From IMG/VR virus record IMGVR_UViG_2639762873_000006, positions 1-27,572 of that record: a stretch of DNA of 27,572 nt. One strand, 5' to 3'. A program made the position numbers and the translations under genes. This DNA is from a virus. Lineage: Duplodnaviria; Heunggongvirae; Uroviricota; Caudoviricetes. Below, in pieces: positions 1 through 15,481 of the stretch (position 1 is its first letter; each line of letters opens with the position of its first letter). Under the pieces are notes generated by a model, which was not told the origin of the DNA, ran no database searches, and worked only from the letters and a program-made list of their open reading frames with translations.

Positions 1-294
1 ATGTCTAAGGGTGTATCTACTGATTTGATCATTAAGGCACATGATTTAGGATTCAAGATTAACGAGATTGATAATCGTGTAACGGGAATGTTTCATGTAG
101 TAATTAGTTCCCGTCATAATGAGCGTGAATTATTCAGTATGTTTCTTATGTCTGGTGGCTTGTTCCATTGGGAAAAGAACATCAATTTACCCAAGAGTGT
201 AACCGATAAGATCACTATTGCCCGATTCGATGGTGAACGTGCTTTCACTTCATTACTAGAAGTAGTATCCGAAGAAATTACTAACGTACATTAA
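1..294 (+). CDS. hypothetical protein (ATG at window position 1; may extend upstream of the window)
   Basis: 97-aa ORF from the six-frame track; followed by a hairpin at 299-337; no recognisable motif. Confidence 0.4.
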   Translation: MSKGVSTDLIIKAHDLGFKINEIDNRVTGMFHVVISSRHNERELFSMFLMSGGLFHWEKNINLPKSVTDKITIARFDGERAFTSLLEVVSEEITNVH

Positions 295-298
295 TCAA

Positions 299-337
299 TT
301 AACACTACTAGTACCGGAAATATACTGGTAGTGTTAA
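299..337 (+). terminator. imperfect hairpin after first ORF (about 13-bp stem, one mismatch)
   Basis: TTAACACTACTAG ... CTGGTAGTGTTAA inverted repeat directly after the stop at 292-294; no clear T-run. Confidence 0.3.
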
Positions 338-615
338 TATGGACACTCTATGAAAAAATTAACCTTTACTTACCTTGCGGCTGCAAATTTCTTTTTCTTC
401 ATTGCTGGGATCTTTACATGCGTATTAGTTGTATTGCAGGTGGACTTATAACCGAAGTTTTCGACGATCACGACCGAAAGGTAGGGGCGGTCACTATGTC
501 TAAGCATCCCCGACACATCAACAAGCCTTTTAGTGATGGTAAGAAGTGGCACACTACCTATAACGAAGCACTATTGAGCTTACTTACTAGAAAACGCGTC
601 AACATTAAGCTATGA
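331..615 (+). CDS. hypothetical protein, start uncertain (GTG at 331; internal ATG at 496 would give a 39-aa basic peptide)
   Basis: ORF whose stop overlaps the next start as ATGA (612-615), suggesting translational coupling; N-terminal half is Cys/Trp-rich and looks unlike protein. Confidence 0.3.
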   Translation: MLIWTLYEKINLYLPCGCKFLFLHCWDLYMRISCIAGGLITEVFDDHDRKVGAVTMSKHPRHINKPFSDGKKWHTTYNEALLSLLTRKRVNIKL

Positions 616-833
616 ATGATCTACATGAGCTAAACGTACTCTATATAGATACAGTACGGAAACTTACCGAAGAAGATCTACTAGGTGAATTTGGTCTTAC
701 CAGTGAGATGATAAACACTTTGAAGGAGATCCCACTTGCAAATATAGTTAAACTAACCGATTGTACTCAGTTACTGTTAAAACCAAATGAGGCTGTATTA
801 TGGGAAGCATTAAAAGCATTACCGCAAAAATGA
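612..833 (+). CDS. hypothetical protein (73 aa)
   Basis: ORF with ATGA overlap to both the upstream and downstream genes. Confidence 0.5.
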   Translation: MNDLHELNVLYIDTVRKLTEEDLLGEFGLTSEMINTLKEIPLANIVKLTDCTQLLLKPNEAVLWEALKALPQK

Positions 834-1483
834 TCAGTACGATTCTGAATGATGATTTTAATGTAGGTATGTTGACTGCCGACGCAACAGGCCGCAATGC
901 ACTGGCAAACGTCAACGAAGAAGATATAGATACACTTATTCAACGCCTGGGCGAAGTGAAGGACTATGTAAGCACACTACGTACCGAGCGACTAAACGAA
1001 GCTAAGAAGCTATTAGAATCACTTGTACAAGAGTCTGGTAGCTTCTCTAGTGTAGAGGAACTGCTTTCTACACTTGCCGTATCTTCTCCTGCTTCCATAC
1101 CACAAAAAGCATCGAAGCCAAACGGTAATAAGATATTCGAAGTAGTCATAGTTGATAGCAAGAAGGACGAAAGAAGAACCTATAATGTAATCAATAAGAA
1201 GTTACCAGCGGCATTACTCAAGGATGAAGTATACATTCAGTTGGTTAAGAAGAATCCCGAACTATCGGACGTTGACGAGTTTTTACGGGCGTATAGTGAG
1301 GACTATCGCAAAAAATACCCGCTTAATGCGAAGTGGAACGGTCATGAGTTCCATCTAAACCAGAAAGGGAAGATGAACGCGAAAGCACAAGAATACTACG
1401 CCGAGTACAAGCAGCAGTATCCTAAACAGGCCGACGAGCAAGACTTTAAAGAACTTGTTACTAAAGCGTATAAGGTAGTATAA
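830..1483 (+). CDS. hypothetical protein with Lys-rich C-terminal half
   Basis: ORF 800-1483 in the track; ATG at 830 overlaps the upstream stop (ATGA), so 830 is preferred. Confidence 0.5.
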   Translation: MISTILNDDFNVGMLTADATGRNALANVNEEDIDTLIQRLGEVKDYVSTLRTERLNEAKKLLESLVQESGSFSSVEELLSTLAVSSPASIPQKASKPNGNKIFEVVIVDSKKDERRTYNVINKKLPAALLKDEVYIQLVKKNPELSDVDEFLRAYSEDYRKKYPLNAKWNGHEFHLNQKGKMNAKAQEYYAEYKQQYPKQADEQDFKELVTKAYKVV

Positions 1484-1490
1484 GAATAAC

Positions 1491-1523
1491 AATAGCTACT
1501 ACACAAATAAAGTAGTAGCTATT
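1491..1523 (+). terminator. perfect 12-bp stem hairpin (AATAGCTACTAC / GTAGTAGCTATT, 9-nt loop)
   Basis: Inverted repeat read directly from the sequence just after the stop at 1481-1483; no T-run, so it may be a processing or attenuation site rather than an intrinsic terminator. Confidence 0.45.
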
Positions 1524-1591
1524 ACTAAATATCATAGCTATAATAATTCACATCAAACATCACCTCACACAATCACTACAAGGATTTACTA

Positions 1592-1972
1592 ATGAAAAAT
1601 CTCTTTACCCTAGCTGTACTCGCTACGGCTACAATCACTACTGGCTGTACTACTATAACGCCTGCTTTTATGAATGAAGCCGTAGTAGGTGATATTAACG
1701 GTCGTACACTAGTATTATTCCCCGTAAATGGTGGTAAAGAGTATCGCCCACAATTCAGTAGTGATTGTCAGCCTATGCTATTGGGTGAAGAACGCCCATC
1801 TACTGGTAGCTGTATTATTGCCGCCGACCGACTTACAAATATTCATAGCTTCGAAGAACATAAAGCCCACGGCCCCCACAAAAACACCACTAAGATAGTT
1901 GATCGTTCAAATAATTACGGTACAGAATTTGAGTTATCGAAACCAACTAATTATATAGACGATAATCTGTGA
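1592..1972 (+). CDS. putative lipoprotein (126 aa)
   Basis: N-terminus MKNLFTLAVLATATITTGC: basic residue, hydrophobic core, lipobox-like TTGC with Cys at about position 19; RBS AAGGA 8 nt upstream. Confidence 0.6.
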   Translation: MKNLFTLAVLATATITTGCTTITPAFMNEAVVGDINGRTLVLFPVNGGKEYRPQFSSDCQPMLLGEERPSTGSCIIAADRLTNIHSFEEHKAHGPHKNTTKIVDRSNNYGTEFELSKPTNYIDDNL

Positions 1973-2151
1973 TGAAGAAAACAATATTTGCCGTACTTTT
2001 AGTTATGGGGACTGCATATTACTATGATATAATAAAATACATTAACCCTACTTATTAAATTGCAGTCGCCGTAATCAAAAACACTGTCATTATCTGGCAT
2101 CAACAATGCCATTGATTCTGATAAAGTAGATAATCCCGAATGGATGAATTT

Positions 2152-2532
2152 ATGAAAAAGATTGTACTGTCTGCATTACTGTTAGTAGCCCCTTCGGTAC
2201 TGGCAGTAAATGTAATACTCCCTGATGATGGTTTATATCGTTGCGGTGTTGAATCGTGGGAACAGGTAGGAAAGCGAGTAGTAAAGACTGGTTATTATGG
2301 TATGACTGGTTATGTGAGTATTGATAACCGTGCTGTTAGTGTGAAGTTTAGGGATATGAATATTTCATTCAGCCCTGTTTCAAAACTTAAAAGCGGTCGC
2401 CTGATGGCCTATGCCGTAGATACTGACCAGTACGATATTATTATTAGTGCAATCAATGGTAAAACACAGTATATGGTCAGCAATGAGAATAATCCCGTAT
2501 TTTTGAACTTCTCCAATTGTATTATTGAATAA
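2152..2532 (+). CDS. secreted protein, paralog A (signal peptide MKKIVLSALLLVAPSVLA)
   Basis: Start at MKK chosen by alignment to paralog B; shared GLY(R/Q)C motif and C-terminal (F)(S/Q)NC(I/V) motif. Confidence 0.6.
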   Translation: MKKIVLSALLLVAPSVLAVNVILPDDGLYRCGVESWEQVGKRVVKTGYYGMTGYVSIDNRAVSVKFRDMNISFSPVSKLKSGRLMAYAVDTDQYDIIISAINGKTQYMVSNENNPVFLNFSNCIIE

Positions 2533-2541
2533 GGAATAGAA

Positions 2542-2928
2542 ATGAAAAAGGTTATCGTATCTGCATTACTGTTAGTAGCTCCTTCGGTACTGGCTAACAC
2601 TCACTCTCTACCAGAGCAGGGATTGTATCAATGTGATGTGAAAGTAGTTGAAATGCTGGGTGATACTCCAGTAGAAAAATCTTCTTATTCTGGTGCAGGT
2701 CACGCTAAAGTTAATAGTGATGGTTTTATCCTTAACTTCGGTGCAATGACTCACGCCACCGGACCAATAGAATCTAATGATTCAATGACAATGGCTTATG
2801 ATAATGATAAGCAGCGATACTTCCTTGCAACAATGGGAAGTAAAGAGCAAAACGATATTACTTTTATCTTCTTATTGAGATCTGATACTCGTAATTACTA
2901 CTTTCAAAACTGCGTTAAAATAAAATAA
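2542..2928 (+). CDS. secreted protein, paralog B (signal peptide MKKVIVSALLLVAPSVLA)
   Basis: RBS AAGGAA upstream; signal peptide nearly identical to paralog A at nucleotide level; mature part diverged. Confidence 0.65.
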   Translation: MKKVIVSALLLVAPSVLANTHSLPEQGLYQCDVKVVEMLGDTPVEKSSYSGAGHAKVNSDGFILNFGAMTHATGPIESNDSMTMAYDNDKQRYFLATMGSKEQNDITFIFLLRSDTRNYYFQNCVKIK

Positions 2929-2937
2929 GGGATATAT

Positions 2938-3147
2938 ATGTCAGAGAAACTAATTAAAGCAATCCGTAATATCACGGAATATAATATGAGTATTGAGCGT
3001 ATCATTGTTAGTACCGAAGACCAGCAACACTATTATAGTATTAATCCTTATAAGGAAACTGTAATAAAGGTAGCAGACCAATACGGCAAACCAATTGAAG
3101 GGGAAGTAGAAATACCACAAATACCGCCATTATTCGATACTAACTAA
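2938..3147 (+). CDS. hypothetical protein (69 aa)
   Basis: ORF with RBS AAGGGA; followed by an intrinsic terminator. Confidence 0.5.
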   Translation: MSEKLIKAIRNITEYNMSIERIIVSTEDQQHYYSINPYKETVIKVADQYGKPIEGEVEIPQIPPLFDTN

Positions 3148-3153
3148 TAATAT

Positions 3154-3180
3154 AGCCCACTAATAAAAGTGGGCTTTTTA
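3154..3180 (+). terminator. rho-independent terminator (AGCCCACT / AGTGGGCT stem, then TTTT)
   Basis: 8-bp perfect stem, 6-nt loop, T-run, directly after the stop at 3145-3147. Confidence 0.7.
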
Positions 3181-3198
3181 ATCTAATAAGGAAAGTAA

Positions 3199-3672
3199 AT
3201 GAAAATTATAAAAAACATTCCTTCACTTCCAGATGTAGAAGTGACACTAAGTAGCCGTACTAATGAAATTGTATTAGTACACAATACTAAAACTGGTCAT
3301 ACAGTAGTAGAGAATAATGATTCATGGTATGAGGGAAACACCGATAAAAAATCACATTGGGGTGATCATATCGATGATGCAGCAGCTTTTCATAGCTTCG
3401 CACAGAATCGCTGTACTAATCCCACTACTAAACCAGATCAAATTAGTGATTTAGCATTAGGTACGTTTTGCTTTCATAATGTATTAGAAGAAGATCTTGT
3501 ATTTGAAAACACTGATTACCATGCTGCAAGGTTATCCGGTATAGGTCGTGTAGTACCCACTGATTATAATAGTGTGACGGTATATGATCCAAATAATAAC
3601 CCACCAACCACTATTACAGGCGATGCAGCAGAAATTATAGTTCGCCTTCTATCAATGACAGTAACCAACTAA
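3199..3672 (+). CDS. hypothetical protein (157 aa)
   Basis: ORF with RBS AAGGAAA; no recognisable motif. Confidence 0.55.
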   Translation: MKIIKNIPSLPDVEVTLSSRTNEIVLVHNTKTGHTVVENNDSWYEGNTDKKSHWGDHIDDAAAFHSFAQNRCTNPTTKPDQISDLALGTFCFHNVLEEDLVFENTDYHAARLSGIGRVVPTDYNSVTVYDPNNNPPTTITGDAAEIIVRLLSMTVTN

Positions 3673-3678
3673 TAATCT

Positions 3679-3700
3679 AGCCCACTACTCACAGTGGGCT
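3679..3700 (+). repeat. second copy of the AGCCCACT / AGTGGGCT hairpin (different loop, no T-run)
   Basis: Same 8-bp stem as at 3154-3175 with conserved flanks (TAATAAT.TAG upstream, AATCTAA..AGGAAA downstream). Confidence 0.5.
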
Positions 3701-3725
3701 ATTCAATCTAACGAGGAAAAATATA

Positions 3726-4382
3726 ATGACAGGTAAAGAACTATTTGAAGAATTTATTATGCACGATCACCGCAAAGGACTTACATGTACTATTGATATT
3801 CGTCCTTCCAGTAAGCCGGGATTCGAACTAATCGGGGTAGGTCATTTCAATTTAGGTAAAGGTTATCGTTTCTATCTCAGCGAAGACTGCGTAGAAATCC
3901 GTGATAATCTATCCCGCTTACGTCATGAACATCGTAAAATAGTATCAGAACGGTTAGACGATCCAATAGAGGCACTAGATTCAATTATCTATTCTTCTCT
4001 ATATGGTGATTATCATGGCTGTACTAATCGTTATTTTGGCGGTGTATTAGTTCACTACGCATTAGAACTAAAATCAAAGATAACCGTAACTATATCTACT
4101 GATGAAAACTTATTGTTCAAAGATCTACCGCCAGATGTACAGGAAGAAATGAAGTATGATGTATATCTAAAAGATCGCAAACGTGTAGTAGCTTATGACT
4201 CATTACAATATAGTGATAATAAAGAATTTATCCTACAACACTATAAACCATGTGCCCCACATCCAAATCGTGTAGTATTCACAGATGGAACGGCAGAACA
4301 GCTACAAGATCAATCACCAGTACATATACCTGGCTATACTGAATACGTAACTAGCTATACTGGTAAACGCCACTTCAAGTAA
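3726..4382 (+). CDS. hypothetical protein (218 aa)
   Basis: ORF with RBS GAGGAAAA; no recognisable motif. Confidence 0.6.
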   Translation: MTGKELFEEFIMHDHRKGLTCTIDIRPSSKPGFELIGVGHFNLGKGYRFYLSEDCVEIRDNLSRLRHEHRKIVSERLDDPIEALDSIIYSSLYGDYHGCTNRYFGGVLVHYALELKSKITVTISTDENLLFKDLPPDVQEEMKYDVYLKDRKRVVAYDSLQYSDNKEFILQHYKPCAPHPNRVVFTDGTAEQLQDQSPVHIPGYTEYVTSYTGKRHFK

Positions 4383-4395
4383 TCCCATCCCCTAA

Positions 4396-4422
4396 ATACT
4401 CCTATACATGCTATAGGAGTAT
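4396..4422 (+). promoter_or_regulatory. perfect 11-bp stem hairpin whose 3' arm contains the GGAG Shine-Dalgarno of the next gene
   Basis: ATACTCCTATA catgc TATAGGAGTAT; GGAG at 4416-4419 lies in the right arm, 9 nt before the ATG at 4429. Confidence 0.4.
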
Positions 4423-4428
4423 CACACC

Positions 4429-4815
4429 ATGAATACAATCTACCTACACTTCCCTGATGGAACGTATAAGGCCATAGAAAGCACCACAGGCCGACAGGAA
4501 TCAGGATACATACCATCACGCAAGGATAAGCTAATAACCGCTCATATCATCACACAGGACGGTTACGAGCTATTCATAGATACCTATACACTAACGCTTA
4601 AGTATAAATACATTACATTAAACTACTCACGCTTCACCATAGGCCGTACTAATTACCCTATCAATGCACTAGATACATTCAGCGGTAGTGAGCTACCACA
4701 CTTAACCCGACTAAGGGAACTACGCGACGAGATCTTACAGTACCGTACCGTAGATGGTCTGCCTATCTCTTATCGTTGTGATGTAATCGTTAGTAATATG
4801 GTGATACTCAAGTAG
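4429..4815 (+). CDS. hypothetical protein (128 aa)
   Basis: ORF; its RBS is embedded in the upstream hairpin. Confidence 0.55.
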   Translation: MNTIYLHFPDGTYKAIESTTGRQESGYIPSRKDKLITAHIITQDGYELFIDTYTLTLKYKYITLNYSRFTIGRTNYPINALDTFSGSELPHLTRLRELRDEILQYRTVDGLPISYRCDVIVSNMVILK

Positions 4816-4991
4816 ATTGCATAGACAATGCATAAACAGTGAATAATAGAATGATGGTATACTTCGGTACTGATAGGTGAAACATATCAACATTATGTGC
4901 AATTTGTGCGATTTTATCGAAAAATGATGAAATAAATCAAAATAAAGGTTGACAGTCCAAAATTATCATAGGTTCTCCCAAAAATGGCAAA

Positions 4992-5013
4992 GAGGGCGAG
5001 TTTTCGCCGCGAG
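4992..5013. other. GC-rich island in an AT-rich non-coding region; candidate cos/terminase recognition element
   Basis: GAGGGCGAGTTTTCGCCGCGAG is the only GC-rich stretch in the 4816-5132 intergenic region, about 120 bp upstream of the terminase small subunit; contains a GGCGA/TCGCC hairpin and elements like those I recall from lambda cos (GGGCG, GTTTTCGC). Confidence 0.25.
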
Positions 5014-5132
5014 TTATAATAAAAATACGTGAGAAATTTTACATAAAACAAACAAATATATAGATAAAACCTATTAGTACCGAAATAGATAGAAAATACC
5101 AATCAATGGAAAATGAATAGGAATTGCATAAA

Positions 5133-5702
5133 ATGGCAAAAAATAAAGACGATGGAACCCGCTATTCCTGGCAAGAAATCGCCGACCGATTCGGCGTAGA
5201 ACATTCCACAGTATCGCGTATCTGGTCGGGGAAAGGATTAGATATTAGCTGGCCTAAGAAATTAGTAGACGACTGGTTACTAGCGAACGTAATCGAACCA
5301 ATGCGTAATGGTGATGTGAAGGGAATGATCCATAAAGCCACACTACGCAAACTAGAAGCAGAAGCAGACCTAAAAGAATTAGAACTACGACAGCAATCTG
5401 GTGAACTAATTCCGGTAGCAGTAGTACAGCAAACATTATCACAATATTTCTATCAACTACGTCAGGTACTAAGAAGTATACCGGCAGCAAGTTACGTAGA
5501 ACTATTTGAATCACAGGACGCTTTAGAATTAAAAATTAAATTACAGGACAAGATAGACCGCCAGCTAGAGGAAATAGGCGGCTATGAATATGAGGGAACA
5601 TATGAAGAACAACTACCAGAAGATGATGAAGATCCTAACGAGGGCGGCGAAGTCGATCCTACCTCCGAAGAAACAACTACCCGCAGAGTGGGTAGAGAGT
5701 AA
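5133..5702 (+). CDS. terminase small subunit (HTH DNA-binding, acidic C-terminus)
   Basis: Immediately upstream of the large terminase; helix-turn-helix-like SWQEIADRFGVEHSTVSRIW near the N-terminus; track start 5124 is TTG, so the first ATG at 5133 (RBS AGGAA) is preferred. Confidence 0.6.
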   Translation: MAKNKDDGTRYSWQEIADRFGVEHSTVSRIWSGKGLDISWPKKLVDDWLLANVIEPMRNGDVKGMIHKATLRKLEAEADLKELELRQQSGELIPVAVVQQTLSQYFYQLRQVLRSIPAASYVELFESQDALELKIKLQDKIDRQLEEIGGYEYEGTYEEQLPEDDEDPNEGGEVDPTSEETTTRRVGRE

Positions 5703-7497
5703 CCTAGTCTTCCCCGATGGCGAACTACAAGGGCAACGCGTCAAATTATTTGCCTTTCAACATAAGCCCATCAACGATATAGTTAATCCACGTGTACGTA
5801 AAGTGGTACTAATGAGTAGTGCTCAACTTCTCAAGACAACGGTACTACAGAATAGTATGTACTACTTCCTCGCCAATGATCCTAGTAACATGATATTTGG
5901 CGGTGCTACTGGTGGTACTACTAGTAAATTTAGGACTGGTAAATGGCAAGCAGTCATCGAAGCATGTTCGGTACTGAAAAATCTCGTTAGTAATAAGAAC
6001 GACAAGAACTATACGAACAATGACAAGACACAACAAAATTTAGATGGTACGTTTACCTACTTCCTGTCATTGGGTAGTAGTGCTTCACTACGTGGTCTAA
6101 CGGCCCCTCGCGTATTTTTGGATGAGATATCCAATGTCAACGCCGACGGCGAAGAAGGCAATCCCTTGAAGCTGGCAGAACAGAGAACGAAAGCATTCAG
6201 TAACCCCCTTATTATGTGCTGTTCTACTCCACTTGATGAACATGACCTGATTACCCAACAGTACGAACAAAGTAATAAACAAAAGTTTTATGTACCTTGC
6301 CCTCACTGTAACCACTCACACGAAATGGTATTTGAAAATGTTAAATTCGAATGGAAGATTATTGAAGGCGGTCGCCGTCGTATTCCTGATGCAGACACTG
6401 CAAGGCTAGAATGTCCTAAGTGTAATAATGTAATAACAGAAGCAGAACGTGTACGAATGATCCGTAGGGGTGAATGGATAGTAACAGCACCAGAAGTAAC
6501 CGATATAATGGGCTATCACATATCTAGACTCTATTCCCCTATCAACTCGATCAAATCGATTGTAGCAGACTTTGCCGAAGCACATTATACCTTTGACCTT
6601 GCATCATTCTATAACAACGTCTTAGGACTACCATATATTGATAAAGAGAATACCGACCATGATTTAGTATTATTGGAGAACCTAAGAGATAGTGAAATAG
6701 ATATTAATAATATACCCGACGATGTACTAGGGGTGGTATACGGCGTCGATCAGCAGCTCGACAGGTTGGAGGTAACTACACTAGGAGTAAGTGAGAAGAA
6801 TCTCTATGTTTTAGATCATCGCAGTATATACGCAATTGACTGTACTAAAATCGAAGCCCCAGCATGGAATAAACTAACGGCCTTTGCCAATGCACCATTG
6901 AAAACACATTCGGGTAAACCACTTAAAGTATTAGCCGGATTCGTCGATAGTAGTAATGGCAACGCAACCAGTACCGTATATCGTTATTGCAGTAACTCTA
7001 CTATCTTTAAACCTATTAAGGGTGGTACGTCTAACTCAAACCCACTATTCAAAGGTAGTACCGCTGGTGGTCACTCCCTGATTAACCTTAATGTAAACTT
7101 AGGTAAAACGAACGTTAGACAATTACTAAACCGTGCTGTATCCGATAGTGAAAATAGTAAGGAAGTACAAATACATTTCAGCCATTCATTACCAGATGAT
7201 TACTTTATTCAGATTACATCCGAGAAACGAGTGATAAAGGCTGGTGCCTGGGTATGGGTGAAAAAGGTTAGTAGTGCGAGGAATGAAACTCTCGATTGTC
7301 TTAATTACTCGCTTATATGTTTCCAGTGGTATCTATCTAAATTGGGTAGTCAACCATTCCGACAACTAAGGGAATATAACGCGAAACAAAAAGAGAAAGC
7401 AGGACTAAATAAAGAAGTAAATACAGAAGAAGCACCAACTAAGCCAACTCCAAAACGAGTAATAAGGCCGCGTAAAGGTGGTGGATTCTTTAAATAA
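5584..7497 (+). CDS. terminase large subunit, lambda gpA-like family
   Basis: 637 aa, close to lambda gpA length; N-terminal LPAEWVESN...FP motif resembles the gpA N-terminus; zinc-ribbon-like CPHC ... CPKC; C-terminal ETLDC motif. The 5' end overlaps the small subunit by about 119 nt; alternative start ATG 5602 has a GAGGGA RBS. Confidence 0.85.
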   Translation: MNMREHMKNNYQKMMKILTRAAKSILPPKKQLPAEWVESNLVFPDGELQGQRVKLFAFQHKPINDIVNPRVRKVVLMSSAQLLKTTVLQNSMYYFLANDPSNMIFGGATGGTTSKFRTGKWQAVIEACSVLKNLVSNKNDKNYTNNDKTQQNLDGTFTYFLSLGSSASLRGLTAPRVFLDEISNVNADGEEGNPLKLAEQRTKAFSNPLIMCCSTPLDEHDLITQQYEQSNKQKFYVPCPHCNHSHEMVFENVKFEWKIIEGGRRRIPDADTARLECPKCNNVITEAERVRMIRRGEWIVTAPEVTDIMGYHISRLYSPINSIKSIVADFAEAHYTFDLASFYNNVLGLPYIDKENTDHDLVLLENLRDSEIDINNIPDDVLGVVYGVDQQLDRLEVTTLGVSEKNLYVLDHRSIYAIDCTKIEAPAWNKLTAFANAPLKTHSGKPLKVLAGFVDSSNGNATSTVYRYCSNSTIFKPIKGGTSNSNPLFKGSTAGGHSLINLNVNLGKTNVRQLLNRAVSDSENSKEVQIHFSHSLPDDYFIQITSEKRVIKAGAWVWVKKVSSARNETLDCLNYSLICFQWYLSKLGSQPFRQLREYNAKQKEKAGLNKEVNTEEAPTKPTPKRVIRPRKGGGFFK

Positions 7498-12046: not shown

Positions 12047-15000
12047 ATGGCAGATCAAATTTTTACAGGGAGTGGTTTTAAATTATTTTATAATGACGAT
12101 ACCGCAAACCGTATCCCCGATAACGCAGGGAACGAGCTAGTAAATGAATTGGCGGCTATGCCTTCATTCGGTATTGATAGCCAAGTACAAACTATTGAAG
12201 TATATAACAGTGAATTTTCAGAGAAACTACTCGCAGAACAGAACGTAAACGATATTGATATTGTTGTTAACTACGTACCAGATTGCACCGCTCACGCATT
12301 TTTAGATCAAGCGACCGAAGATCAGACCGAGTTCCAGCTAACACTACAGTACGCCGTAACTGATGGTATCATCTCCTACAGTATGGTGAATGGTATGATT
12401 AGTTCCGCTCGCCTTGCTGGTGATAAAGACTCAGTAGTTACTAAATCATATACCTTTACCCCTACCGACGTTCTAGTACGTGATGGACAGGCACCATTGA
12501 GTACCGGACTAGTTGTAGGATCATATGGCGTAGGTAGTAACGGCGTAGACGTACCACAGTACGAACCACAGTTACCAAATGGCAACAGTTTTATCAAAGT
12601 ACCAGCAGCACGCAATGATAACCCAGCTAGTGCGGATCTAATGGGTATTGGTCTTATCGATTCCGGTACATTCTCCAGTATTGCAATGACTAAATCCGGT
12701 ACATTGGCAATCTATGCAAAGAACCAGAATACAGCATGGACGCGTATACTTACTGCAACTCAGATTAGTGATCAGTATGTACCACTTACGCGTAAGGTTA
12801 ATGGTAAAGCACTAAATGCAGATATTACTATTACTAAAGTAGATGTAGGACTAGGTAACGTAACTAATGATGCACAATTGAAAATAGCTAGTAACCTTTC
12901 TGATTTAAATAACGTCAACACAGCCCGTACTAACTTAAAAGTAGCTCGTTTTGAAGAAACTAGACCAGACCTAAGTACAATTTATTCTACTGATGATAAG
13001 TCTGGATATAAAGTAGTAGTACGTAGTGATGGCTATTGGGGTGCAATGAATGCAGACGGCACAGTCACTAAAGGTCTATCGATTGACATGGGCGGTACTG
13101 GTGCAAATACATTAGCACAAGCTCAAGCTAATCTAGGTATTGTAACTAGTGCGGCACAGGATGGAAAATATCTAGCTAAGGCAAGTAACCTTTCTGATTT
13201 ACCAAGTAAACCAACAGCCCGTACTAACTTAGGATTAGGTACAGCAGCTACATATAATGTAAGTAGTTCCGGTGCAAACGTTCCATTAATGAGTAGTGCA
13301 AATACGTGGACTGGAATACAATATTTTGGCAATGCACAATTTACATCTACCTATGTTAACCCGTTATTGATTCATAGTCCTACACCTACAATCTATTTGA
13401 AAGATACAGATACAAACGGCTTAGGGATGAAATTAATTGCAGATGGTAGTGTATTCCGTATGCAAGATGATACCTCCGCTGAAACGTGGGCTTTTTCTTA
13501 TAATTACAGTACGAAAGTAGTTACAATGCCATCCTTGCAACTTGCAACTAAACTACAAGTAGCAGAAGGCGGTACGGGTGCAACAAATTGGAAACAGGCA
13601 GCATATAACCTTAACGTTATGCCATATAACCGCAATAGTTTAACTGCAAGTGATAATCTCAATAATTTTGGTGGTCTTAATGCTGGTGTATATTTTTGTG
13701 CTTCAAGTGCTTATGCAACCCCTGCAAATAACTACCCAGAAGCTAACGCAGGTACAGTAATAGTTTATCAGAACGCCGCAAATAGTAGTGATGGTTGTAC
13801 ACAATTTTACTATCCATTCAATACTAACAAAGCATATAAACGTATTCTAAGATTTACCAGTCCAACTACTTCTACGTGGTCATCATGGGCAGAGATCCTA
13901 ACCTCCGAACATATTACCCCCGGTAATATCCCTCGTTTAAATGGTGGTAATACGTGGAATGGTAACCAATCTATTGATACTGGTTATCTAACACTAGGTT
14001 TAAAAAATACCAATGCAACCGCATTTGAAATTGGTAGCCAAACTACAAAAAACTCAGCTTATATTGACTTCCATACAAGCGGTTTAACTAATGACTATGA
14101 TACACGTATTATTGCAGAAACTACTACATCCACTGCAAATGGACAAGGTAAATTATCCTTCGTTGGTGGTGAGTTTAACTTTAATAATAATATTACAGGT
14201 CAGGGAAATATTACGGCTAATGCCTTTATCTCTAAAACTGTAGTTAGTGCAACTGGTGCTATCACTGGTGCAAGCCTCAATACTGGATCTGGTGCTATCA
14301 CTGGTGGTGCAATTAGCGGTACTACATTGACTACAACAGGAGCGGCGAAAGTAGGTAGTATTGATTCTACTGGTGGTCTATATGGGACTGGTGTAGTACA
14401 GGCAGATTCAGCCACTACTGGTACTTATATTAGAATGGGTAATGGTACAACTGATAACTATATCACAAGTAACAACTTCCCAGCAGGCGGTACACAACGC
14501 TATCTACAGTTCAAGAATGACGGTACTGTTAGAATCTCCGACCAGTTGATTATGCACAATAACTTAGATGCAAGTGGTAGCGACTTCCAAGTTACGGCTA
14601 ATAACTTCCGTATAGTAACTGGTGGTAATGGTCTACAGATCAAAAACAATTCAGGATCTGTATCATCTTATCTATCTGGCATTGGGTCTACTAACGTTCG
14701 CGAATGGTACATAGGTAAAGGTGGATCAGGTAAAGGGATTGCATGGTGGAACGATATGTCAGGCGGTCACGGTGTTGATTTAGGGGCAGATGGTAACATC
14801 ACATTAAATACCCTTGCCAGTACCGGAAACGTTAACATACGCGGTACTATGTCAACTACTGGTAGATTATCCGTAACAGGTGATGTAACAGCTTCCGGTA
14901 TAGTTAGAGCTAATACTACTTTTTCAGTTAATGGTACTAGTGGAACTTCTAACGCCCACCTATGGTACTACGGTCACACTGGAGCAAGTCGCGGCGTAAT

Positions 15001-15481
15001 CTATGCGGGAAGTGGCGGTACTATTAACTTCCGACCGGATCGTAATGATGCTGGGGGAGCTAATGGATACTCCGCAGCACTAGATTATACTGGTAAATTT
15101 ACTTGTATGTCGTTATCTCAAACATCCGACCAACGAGCTAAATATGATGCCGCTGATATTAGTGATTCACTAGGTAAGGTACTACAGCTAACTGGTAAGA
15201 CTTATAAAATGAAAGTTACACCAGAAGTAGAAGTAGATGGCGTGGGATTCTTTGCTCAGGAAGTAGAAAAATTCTTCCCAGAAGCTGTATCATCCGTTGG
15301 TAGTGCATATACTCAAGAAGGCGAAGAAATCGAAAACCCACTAGGTCTAGATTATCAGGCTATTTCTGTACTATATGCTGGGGCTATTAAAGAGCTAAAT
15401 GCTAAAGTAGAAGACCAACAATTACAACTCGATGAACTACGTGCTGTAGTAACTCAATTACTAATCGCACAGAATAAATAA
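12047..15481 (+). CDS. tail-tube-domain / tail-fibre fusion protein with C-terminal S74-type intramolecular chaperone domain
   Basis: Residues 1-150 align along their length with the 152-aa tube protein (15538-15996), roughly one-third identical by eye; two phage tail-fibre repeats (NLSDL...ARTNL); Gly/Thr/Ser/Asn-rich fibrous middle; C-terminal SDQRAKYD ... GFFAQEVEKFFPEAV ... coiled coil matches the S74 autoproteolytic chaperone pattern. Confidence 0.75.
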   Translation: MADQIFTGSGFKLFYNDDTANRIPDNAGNELVNELAAMPSFGIDSQVQTIEVYNSEFSEKLLAEQNVNDIDIVVNYVPDCTAHAFLDQATEDQTEFQLTLQYAVTDGIISYSMVNGMISSARLAGDKDSVVTKSYTFTPTDVLVRDGQAPLSTGLVVGSYGVGSNGVDVPQYEPQLPNGNSFIKVPAARNDNPASADLMGIGLIDSGTFSSIAMTKSGTLAIYAKNQNTAWTRILTATQISDQYVPLTRKVNGKALNADITITKVDVGLGNVTNDAQLKIASNLSDLNNVNTARTNLKVARFEETRPDLSTIYSTDDKSGYKVVVRSDGYWGAMNADGTVTKGLSIDMGGTGANTLAQAQANLGIVTSAAQDGKYLAKASNLSDLPSKPTARTNLGLGTAATYNVSSSGANVPLMSSANTWTGIQYFGNAQFTSTYVNPLLIHSPTPTIYLKDTDTNGLGMKLIADGSVFRMQDDTSAETWAFSYNYSTKVVTMPSLQLATKLQVAEGGTGATNWKQAAYNLNVMPYNRNSLTASDNLNNFGGLNAGVYFCASSAYATPANNYPEANAGTVIVYQNAANSSDGCTQFYYPFNTNKAYKRILRFTSPTTSTWSSWAEILTSEHITPGNIPRLNGGNTWNGNQSIDTGYLTLGLKNTNATAFEIGSQTTKNSAYIDFHTSGLTNDYDTRIIAETTTSTANGQGKLSFVGGEFNFNNNITGQGNITANAFISKTVVSATGAITGASLNTGSGAITGGAISGTTLTTTGAAKVGSIDSTGGLYGTGVVQADSATTGTYIRMGNGTTDNYITSNNFPAGGTQRYLQFKNDGTVRISDQLIMHNNLDASGSDFQVTANNFRIVTGGNGLQIKNNSGSVSSYLSGIGSTNVREWYIGKGGSGKGIAWWNDMSGGHGVDLGADGNITLNTLASTGNVNIRGTMSTTGRLSVTGDVTASGIVRANTTFSVNGTSGTSNAHLWYYGHTGASRGVIYAGSGGTINFRPDRNDAGGANGYSAALDYTGKFTCMSLSQTSDQRAKYDAADISDSLGKVLQLTGKTYKMKVTPEVEVDGVGFFAQEVEKFFPEAVSSVGSAYTQEGEEIENPLGLDYQAISVLYAGAIKELNAKVEDQQLQLDELRAVVTQLLIAQNK
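12890..12937 (+). repeat. tail-fibre repeat unit, copy 1 (48 nt)
   Basis: AGTAACCTTTCTGATTTA + 12 nt + ACAGCCCGTACTAACTTA; both 18-nt blocks identical to copy 2. Confidence 0.8.
13184..13231 (+). repeat. tail-fibre repeat unit, copy 2 (48 nt)
   Basis: Same two 18-nt blocks as copy 1 with a different 12-nt spacer; encodes SNLSDL....ARTNL. Confidence 0.8.

Follow-up and report, generated by a model that had tools for sequence, protein, structure and literature searches.

A candidate lambda-type cos site with a simple, N15-like cosB upstream of the terminase genes of an uncharacterized Enterobacteriaceae prophage family

The 27,572-nt stretch of viral DNA analyzed here (IMG/VR record IMGVR_UViG_2639762873_000006, positions 1–27,572; referred to throughout as the window) carries a pair of genes for a small (TerS) and a large (TerL) terminase subunit. 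They are preceded by an intergenic gap in which, we propose, a cos packaging site is located. The gap runs from 4816 to 5132, from the end of the upstream open reading frame (ORF; TAG at 4813–4815) to the ATG of the small terminase at 5133. The initial annotation, made from the sequence without database searches, had described it as the largest gap of the window, at about 317 bp. Its length is exactly 317 bp, the top value among gaps between co-directional ORFs (the runner-up is 167 bp). It had further been described as AT-rich with a single GC-rich island, and both statements hold. The GC content of the gap is 0.30 (0.27 without the island) versus 0.388 for the whole window; it is the lowest-GC stretch of this length, and only 0.1% of 317-bp segments are as low. 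The island, GAGGGCGAGTTTTCGCCGCGAG at 4992–5013, has a GC content of 0.68, which puts it in the top 0.5% of the 22-mers of the window.

Both terminase subunits, and the portal protein, show similarity to proteins of phage lambda, which is weak for TerS. TerS was assigned to phrog_57 (terminase small subunit, E = 1e-18); its Pfam match to HTH_23 is weak, and similarity to lambda Nu1 is also weak (BLASTP, E = 4e-4, residues 14–117). The N-terminal 50 residues of TerS are nearly invariant among relatives. The earlier assignment of TerL to the gpA type was confirmed by Pfam (GpA_ATPase, E = 7e-50; GpA_nuclease, E = 1e-41), and an alignment with lambda gpA spans the whole of TerL, at 22% identity (BLASTP, E = 4e-24). 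Pfam places the portal in the lambda family.

The DNA of the window forms part of a bacterial genome, GCA_000812785.1, and a near-identical element is found in two Escherichia coli chromosomes as a prophage of ~32.5 kb that is inserted in yegD and has a large serine recombinase at one end. The gap is internal to this prophage, with 10 kb between it and the recombinase end and 22 kb on the other side, which fits a permuted map of the lambda type in which the virion chromosome would start at the terminase genes. All hosts of this TerS family are Enterobacteriaceae (E. coli, Salmonella, Citrobacter, Klebsiella, Raoultella, Pluralibacter, and Pseudocitrobacter).

Regions upstream of TerS were collected from IMG/VR, metagenomes, genomes, and Logan assemblies, yielding ~20 distinct sequences, all of them from Enterobacteriaceae prophages. 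Identities are given as mean pairwise values for 21 relatives, and the codon positions of TerS served as the benchmark for selection. An 87-bp block (4970–5056) consists of a box, a core, and a second box held at fixed spacing (Table 1). Outside it, to the left of ~4965 and to the right of ~5057, identity falls to 35–42%, which is background. The core has an identity of 0.90, equal to that of the first and second codon positions of TerS (0.89), and columns G2, T6, T7, C11, and G13–A16 are invariant. The 31-nt spacer that follows it has an identity of 0.64, near that of the third codon positions (0.60), and the 21 nt to the left of the core are at background (0.39). Exactly 31 nt separate the core from the second box in each of the 18 script-matched sequences, and no gap is needed to align all 20 distinct sequences over a 62-nt block. 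On the left, the word GG[T/G]N[C/A][T/C] ends 22–23 nt before the AGTTT of the core in 18 of 22 sequences; this count comprises 18 rows found by script plus locus L024, added by inspection, minus L037, in which the regular expression matched a different site at 11 nt. The remaining four loci (L018, L019, L037, and L063) have GATTCT 20 nt before AGTTT, and L035 carries GGGTCCT at the position of the box. The window contains one other copy of the box, at 6675 on the minus strand. The pattern is one of strong selection for two or three short words and their spacing, with none for the intervening DNA, and is the signature of a DNA site that is occupied by several proteins.

The core contains two small palindromes, CGA-GTTT-TCG and CGC-C-GCG (the latter centered on 5008), and has partial two-fold symmetry. 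It overlaps the right two-thirds of the GC-rich island (4997–5013); the remainder of the island, GAGGG at 4992–4996, is not conserved. The core occurs once in the window. Its 16-mer has 19 exact matches in IMG/VR, of which 10 belong to the prophage family of the window; the other nine fall within coding regions of unrelated, GC-rich contigs in which neither TerS nor TerL is present. In an AT-rich intergenic setting, the IMG/VR matches are found only upstream of this TerS family. The gene on the other side of the block differs among relatives and is at times on the opposite strand, and the block stays fixed before TerS. Neither a further copy of the second box (the AAAC box) nearby, nor repeated R sites, nor an inverted copy of the kind represented by rR2 in N15 was found. 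In one metagenome contig (L033, PPYF01375696.1), judged against L018 (3830–3910) and L063, 72 bp that include the core are deleted between 11-bp direct repeats, AGTATATTAAA. The deletion is either a natural variant that lacks the site or an assembly artefact. Since this prophage has no core, the core would be dispensable for prophage carriage, as expected of a cos site.

The cos junctions of lambda and N15 were read directly from their sequence records, and in both the word GGGTCCT ends 23 nt before the top-strand nick. The cosQ of these phages is a conserved 7-bp element, a conserved CG flanks each nick in lambda-like phages, and in the simple cosB of N15 the one critical TerS site is the 12-bp R3, at bp 48–59 (PMC4669245). 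The order from left to right in lambda and N15 is cosQ, 23 nt, the nick, 47 nt, and the 12-bp R3. In the family of the window it is the box, 22 or 23 nt, CG^A, 46 nt, and a 12-bp box. If the A at 4999 is counted as bp 1, the AAAC box of the window occupies bp 47–58. The distance from the first to the last box is 68–69 nt in this family versus 70 nt in lambda and N15, an agreement to within 1–2 bp.

From these comparisons, we conclude that the region at ~4970–5056 is probably the cos packaging and cleavage site, of lambda type with a simple N15-like cosB, of an uncharacterized temperate Enterobacteriaceae phage of ~32.5 kb. The assignment as cos is partly supported, by comparative anatomy only. 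The main point of the earlier proposal, a cos site near the terminase genes, is thereby retained on the strength of conservation equal to that of the TerS protein, a fixed place, occurrence only with the TerS/TerL pair, and the lambda/N15 spacing.

In the mechanism that we envisage, the Nu1-like TerS would bind the AAAACAAACAAA box (5045–5056) through its invariant N-terminal helix-turn-helix, the box acting, like R3 in N15, as the one critical site of a simple cosB. TerS binding would set the gpA-type TerL on the core, CGAGTTTTCGCCGCGAG (4997–5013), where its endonuclease would introduce staggered nicks to give cohesive ends. Packaging would then run rightwards, with the terminase genes entering first. 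The AGGTTCTCC box (4970–4978), 22–23 nt to the left, would act in the manner of cosQ during cleavage of the next cos, as packaging ends. The AT-rich spacer, with its invariant 31 nt, may take the role of lambda I2, an AT-rich segment at ~bp 18–50 that has A and T tracts (PMC4856287). The lambda/N15 spacing and the conserved CG at 4997–4998 together predict a top-strand nick at about 4998^4999 and a 5' overhang of ~11–12 nt, AGTTTTCGCCG[C]; our confidence in both predictions is, we stress, low.

Table 1. Features of the intergenic gap and the adjoining terminase genes, in window coordinates.
Feature	Position	Strand	Remarks
Candidate cosQ-like box, AGGTTCTCC	4970..4978	+	Family consensus AGGT[T/A]CTCC
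Spacer, sequence free, length conserved	4979..4996	+	Contains left AAAATGGCAAA copy (4981-4991)
Core CGAGTTTTCGCCGCGAG, candidate cosN	4997..5013	+	Family consensus CGAGTTT[T/C]CGCCGCGAA
AT-rich spacer, invariant 31 nt	5014..5044	+	Inverted copy of core right half at 5024-5032, degenerate in the window; T-run at 5037-5040
Second box AAAACAAACAAA (AAAC box), candidate TerS-binding site	5045..5056	+	12 bp; identity 0.87
Variable leader to TerS start	5057..5132	+	Identity 0.42
Small terminase (TerS)	5133..5702	+	189 aa; N-terminal helix-turn-helix, Nu1-like
Large terminase (TerL), gpA family, ATPase and endonuclease	5584..7497	+	637 aa
Three 11-bp-phased TGMATA units	4818..4845	+	Left edge of gap; sub-lineage-specific
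Two 11-bp-phased TGMATA units	5114..5130	+	Just before TerS start; same orientation as left units
Arms of 19-nt inverted repeat	4860-4878 and 5069-5087	+	Bracket the core; sub-lineage-specific
Operator-like palindrome, TGATAGGT-GAA-ACATATCA	4871-4889	+	Overlaps left arm of the 19-nt inverted repeat

Several observations weigh against this assignment. The box consensus matches GGGTCCT at 5 of 7 positions, which is not significant when taken alone (P ~0.1–0.2 by our own estimate, allowing for registers). Lambda cosQ itself is reported to be GGGTCCT, an EcoO109I site, with a 17-bp spacer between it and cosN whose length is fixed and whose sequence is free. In most relatives, the right half of the core can pair with DNA downstream and is then followed by a run of T, an arrangement that resembles a terminator. 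Membership of the gpA family is established as a mark of the cos class for lambda-like phages, not for proteins that are 22% identical to gpA. Homology to lambda cos DNA was considered and rejected: the best local alignment scores 19–21, below the mean of 21.7 for shuffled sequences. The short resemblance to lambda cosN noted initially does exist (11 of 12 positions between GCGAGTTTTCGC and lambda GCGGGTTTTCGC), and it is not above chance. The core, AGTTTTCGCCGCG, has no clear identity to GGGCGGCGACCT, the 12-nt 5' extension of the strict lambda-like cohesive-end group (lambda, 21, phi80, N15, and Gifsy-1). As the sequences are unrelated, the resemblance to known cos sites is one of architecture and not of demonstrable homology.

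The collections that were searched offer no virion ends and no close cultured relative. Among related contigs in IMG/VR, the JGI metagenomes, Logan, and NCBI, none has either of its ends at the core; the check covered 13 IMG/VR loci, 10 metagenome loci, one genome locus, the Logan contigs, and two motif scans. Because these loci are integrated prophages, the result neither supports nor refutes a cos site. The start of contig OGVR01000321.1 (L038) near TerS was considered as a virion end and rejected as a product of an amplification primer. Positions 1–17 of this contig, GTTTCCCAGTCACGATA, are a random-amplification (SISPA-type) primer left in the assembly. INPHARED contains no cultured phage of the family, and the best TerL match there is 37% identical; searches of the cultured-phage collection with the DNA, in near or distant mode, gave no match. 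The protein at 37% identity is that of Escherichia phage DCP80 (L001, PQ671644.1), in which the region upstream of the terminase is unrelated to the gap of the window. DCP80 has a 141-kb genome labelled Straboviridae/Gaprivervirus yet encodes a gpA-type terminase, and its taxonomic label looks doubtful. A literature search for DCP80 found nothing.

The gap also contains several repeats. Copies of AAAATGGCAAA at 4981 and 5130 had been put forward as possible terminase-binding repeats. The copies are exact, and a third is present at 16745, but those at 5130 and 16745 are start-codon contexts (ATG GCA AA, encoding Met-Ala-Lys) and the left copy is absent in most relatives, being confined to the window and, in part, L024. 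The suggestion was therefore abandoned. An 11-codon mini-ORF that starts at 4983 is not conserved. The phased TGMATA units are more distinctive: TGMATA-N5-TGMATA has three matches in the window, all in the gap, where 0.04 are expected, and the array is unique to the gap in the whole of the E. coli prophage (L028). In some relatives the units read GTGAATA and number three plus three, with the last one overlapping the ATG of TerS; other relatives have none. The palindrome is a perfect 8-3-8 in L028 (TGATATGT-GAA-ACATATCA, 20572–20590), where it is unique in the prophage, and it too is sub-lineage-specific. A related arrangement of half-sites is found to the right of the core, at 5058–5076, and forms the 19-nt inverted repeat together with the palindrome and flanking bases. 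The repeats of the leader (TGMATA and the right arm of the inverted repeat) are absent in, for example, L017, L024, L025, and L026. The TGMATA units, the palindrome, and the 19-nt repeat were excluded from the minimal packaging site because they are restricted to sub-lineages even though the DNA-binding domain of TerS is nearly invariant. They are more likely to be regulatory than to function in packaging, and the TGMATA arrays may be a regulator array for the late operon. A different tandem array, of at least eight copies of the hexamer TACCCT, is located ~150–250 nt upstream of the core in L025 (~3690–3760) and L035 (1–55); the L035 contig breaks inside it.

A promoter scan of the window identified no convincing sigma-70 promoter on the plus strand of the gap, and TTGACA at 4949 was dismissed as a promoter element because its position is not kept in relatives. 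Rfam covariance models gave only sub-threshold chance matches in 4300–5700, and a search for tRNA and tmRNA genes found none. The predicted fold of 4855–5092 is strong on both strands (z = -3.5); a structured RNA was nevertheless rejected, as the fold is due only to the sub-lineage-specific 19-nt inverted repeat. Intrinsic curvature through phased A-tracts to the right of the core was likewise discarded, the periodicity being not significant.

We considered whether the block could serve transcription instead. It could be an intrinsic terminator placed before the late operon (stem CCGCGAAT/ATTCGTGG followed by the T-run), where it would stop early or read-through transcription, possibly as part of an antitermination switch similar to lambda tR', with the packaging site elsewhere; the core would then be conserved as part of the terminator or as the site of a regulator. 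Most relatives carry an inverted copy of the right half of the core, CCGCGAAT, 8–12 nt downstream of it, and in them a hairpin is predicted (-7 to -17 kcal/mol) that is followed by GATTTTT or GGTTTTTT. The 9-bp stem arms pair in 80.6% of cells, compared with 24–48% in slid controls. The location, between the early-gene module and the first late gene, would suit such a switch, as would the operator-like palindromes and phased repeats in the same gap. The pattern of conservation speaks against it. The left arm is nearly invariant and the right arm drifts, none of the nine pairs changes on both sides, and RNAalifold returned no consensus structure. An intact core accompanies a weak or lost hairpin in the window, L028, L015/L016, and L018/L063. 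In the window, the stem is ~4 bp followed by four T residues, and a terminator scan reported nothing at the block. Seventeen nucleotides at 90% identity are not normal for terminators, the two further boxes at fixed distances of 22–23 and 31 nt would be left unexplained, and no sigma-70-like promoter on the plus strand precedes the block. We regard a terminator in place of a packaging site as unlikely; a terminator as a secondary role on top of cos is possible.

Other kinds of DNA site were weighed as well. The block might be a pac (headful) site or one that generates terminal repeats, where the initial cut would be made and the virion DNA would be terminally redundant. Evidence from conservation and position fits pac equally well, a TerL that is only 22% identical to lambda gpA does not guarantee the chemistry by which the ends are generated, and the phased repeats that flank the core in some relatives recall the layout of pacL and pacR in SPP1 (PMC4856287). 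Those flanking repeats are not conserved in the family, however, despite the near-invariance of the TerS DNA-binding domain. Moreover, it is well established that the characterized phages in which a Nu1-type TerS and a gpA-type TerL occur together with a portal of the lambda family are cos phages (PMC4669245), and sequence-specific termination, a step absent in headful phages, requires a cosQ-like element at a fixed distance on the far side of the cut. For these reasons, we consider a pac-type site improbable. Less probable still, to the point that we give it little credence, is a replication origin or the operator of a regulator, with the core as the binding site of a replication or regulatory protein. 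The gap is the lowest-GC stretch of the window, its iteron-like TGMATA arrays and 8-3-8 palindrome are unique to it in the whole prophage, and Pfam and PHROG searches recognized no replication genes in the early region. Yet the iteron-like units and palindromes are missing from many relatives that have the core, the A-tracts to the right of the core show no significant phasing, and the conserved block always travels with TerS and with no early gene.

Some features of the surrounding element deserve mention. Gene calls differ for both terminase subunits. The listed TerL ORF overlaps the end of TerS by 119 nt (5584–5702), the call in L060 starts 18 nt later, and with these two calls the true start of TerL is uncertain. 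In Logan assemblies, TerS is extended upstream, to 243 aa in L061 (10001–10732), where the ORF runs through the core, and to 208 aa in L063 (9651–10277), where the extra 17 codons begin ~50 nt past the core. The true start of TerS is the conserved methionine of MAK/MSK..DDGTRY. In the window, the TerS gene starts 76 nt past the last conserved box. One locus, L037 (OGJN01000019.1, 2860–3081), retains the HNH gene upstream, the core region, and no more than the first 27 codons of TerS, after which unrelated genes follow; we considered it as a satellite that borrows the site and interpret it instead as the remnant of a decayed prophage. The early half of the element (1–4815 in the window, 10644–20083 in L028) spans ~10 kb with more than 15 ORFs, among which Pfam and PHROG gave no match except the large serine recombinase and a ribbon-helix-helix protein annotated in L028. 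The GC content of the element is 0.39; enterobacterial chromosomes have values of ~0.5 or higher. A 1144-aa ORF at 12047–15481, annotated in the E. coli copy as a tail fibre with pyocin-knob and S74-peptidase domains, is situated after the head-tail joining genes and before the tail tube gene, which is an unusual position for a fibre gene.

A cos site before a gpA-type terminase is what phage biologists would expect. The proposal adds a precise predicted packaging site, and predicted genome ends, for a family found in E. coli, Salmonella, Citrobacter, Klebsiella, and related genera. It could be used to orient genomes, to distinguish complete from defective copies, and to spot satellites that might borrow the site. 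Of most interest is the recurrence of the lambda spacing with a terminase only 22% identical to gpA. This would offer a second, sequence-independent case of the cosQ–cosN–R3 spacing and could help to test how gpA-type terminases use cosQ, a matter still described as unresolved in the lambda literature (PMC4856287). A bolder version of the idea, which we offer tentatively and consider rather doubtful, is that the lambda geometry (box, 23 nt, nick, 47 nt, TerS site), possibly together with a cosQ word RGGTNCT, has been kept at 22% gpA identity with an unrelated cosN, and that the location of the core in an inverted repeat with a T-run makes one 60-bp element both the cos site and a transcriptional stop before the late genes. 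If that were true, the spacing would be set by the architecture of the gpA-type holoenzyme, and cosQ would be read by a conserved part of TerL.

Comparison with known systems places the block closest in plan to two cos sites and, in part of its sequence, near a class of terminators. Rho-independent terminators of late operons, such as lambda tR', likewise have a GC-containing stem and a T-run between early and late genes, as most relatives do here; the block differs from them in the weak or absent stem of the window, one-sided conservation, lack of covariation, and the extra boxes at fixed distances. With N15, the candidate site shares the order and spacing of three short elements, a single 12-bp candidate TerS site in place of three R sites, a TerS gene that starts soon after this site (bp 89 in N15, ~bp 135 in the window), and a TerL of the gpA family. 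It has no sequence similarity to the cosN of N15, GGGCGGCGTCCG, and the TerS of the window shows no sequence similarity to N15 gp1. No inverted second site (rR2) was found inside the TerS gene of the window.

Relative to lambda, the candidate site has neither repeated R sites nor a recognizable site for integration host factor (IHF), the distance from cos to TerS is ~135 nt rather than 190 nt, and downstream of the core come an inverted repeat of its right half and a T-run, which are absent in lambda. There are likenesses to lambda as well. A Nu1-like TerS and a gpA-like TerL are encoded immediately to the right of the site, and the portal of the window is of the lambda family. A 7-bp box on the left is separated from the core by a spacer of free sequence and constrained length, the core has partial two-fold symmetry, and an AT-rich segment with A and T tracts lies to its right, as in lambda (PMC4856287).

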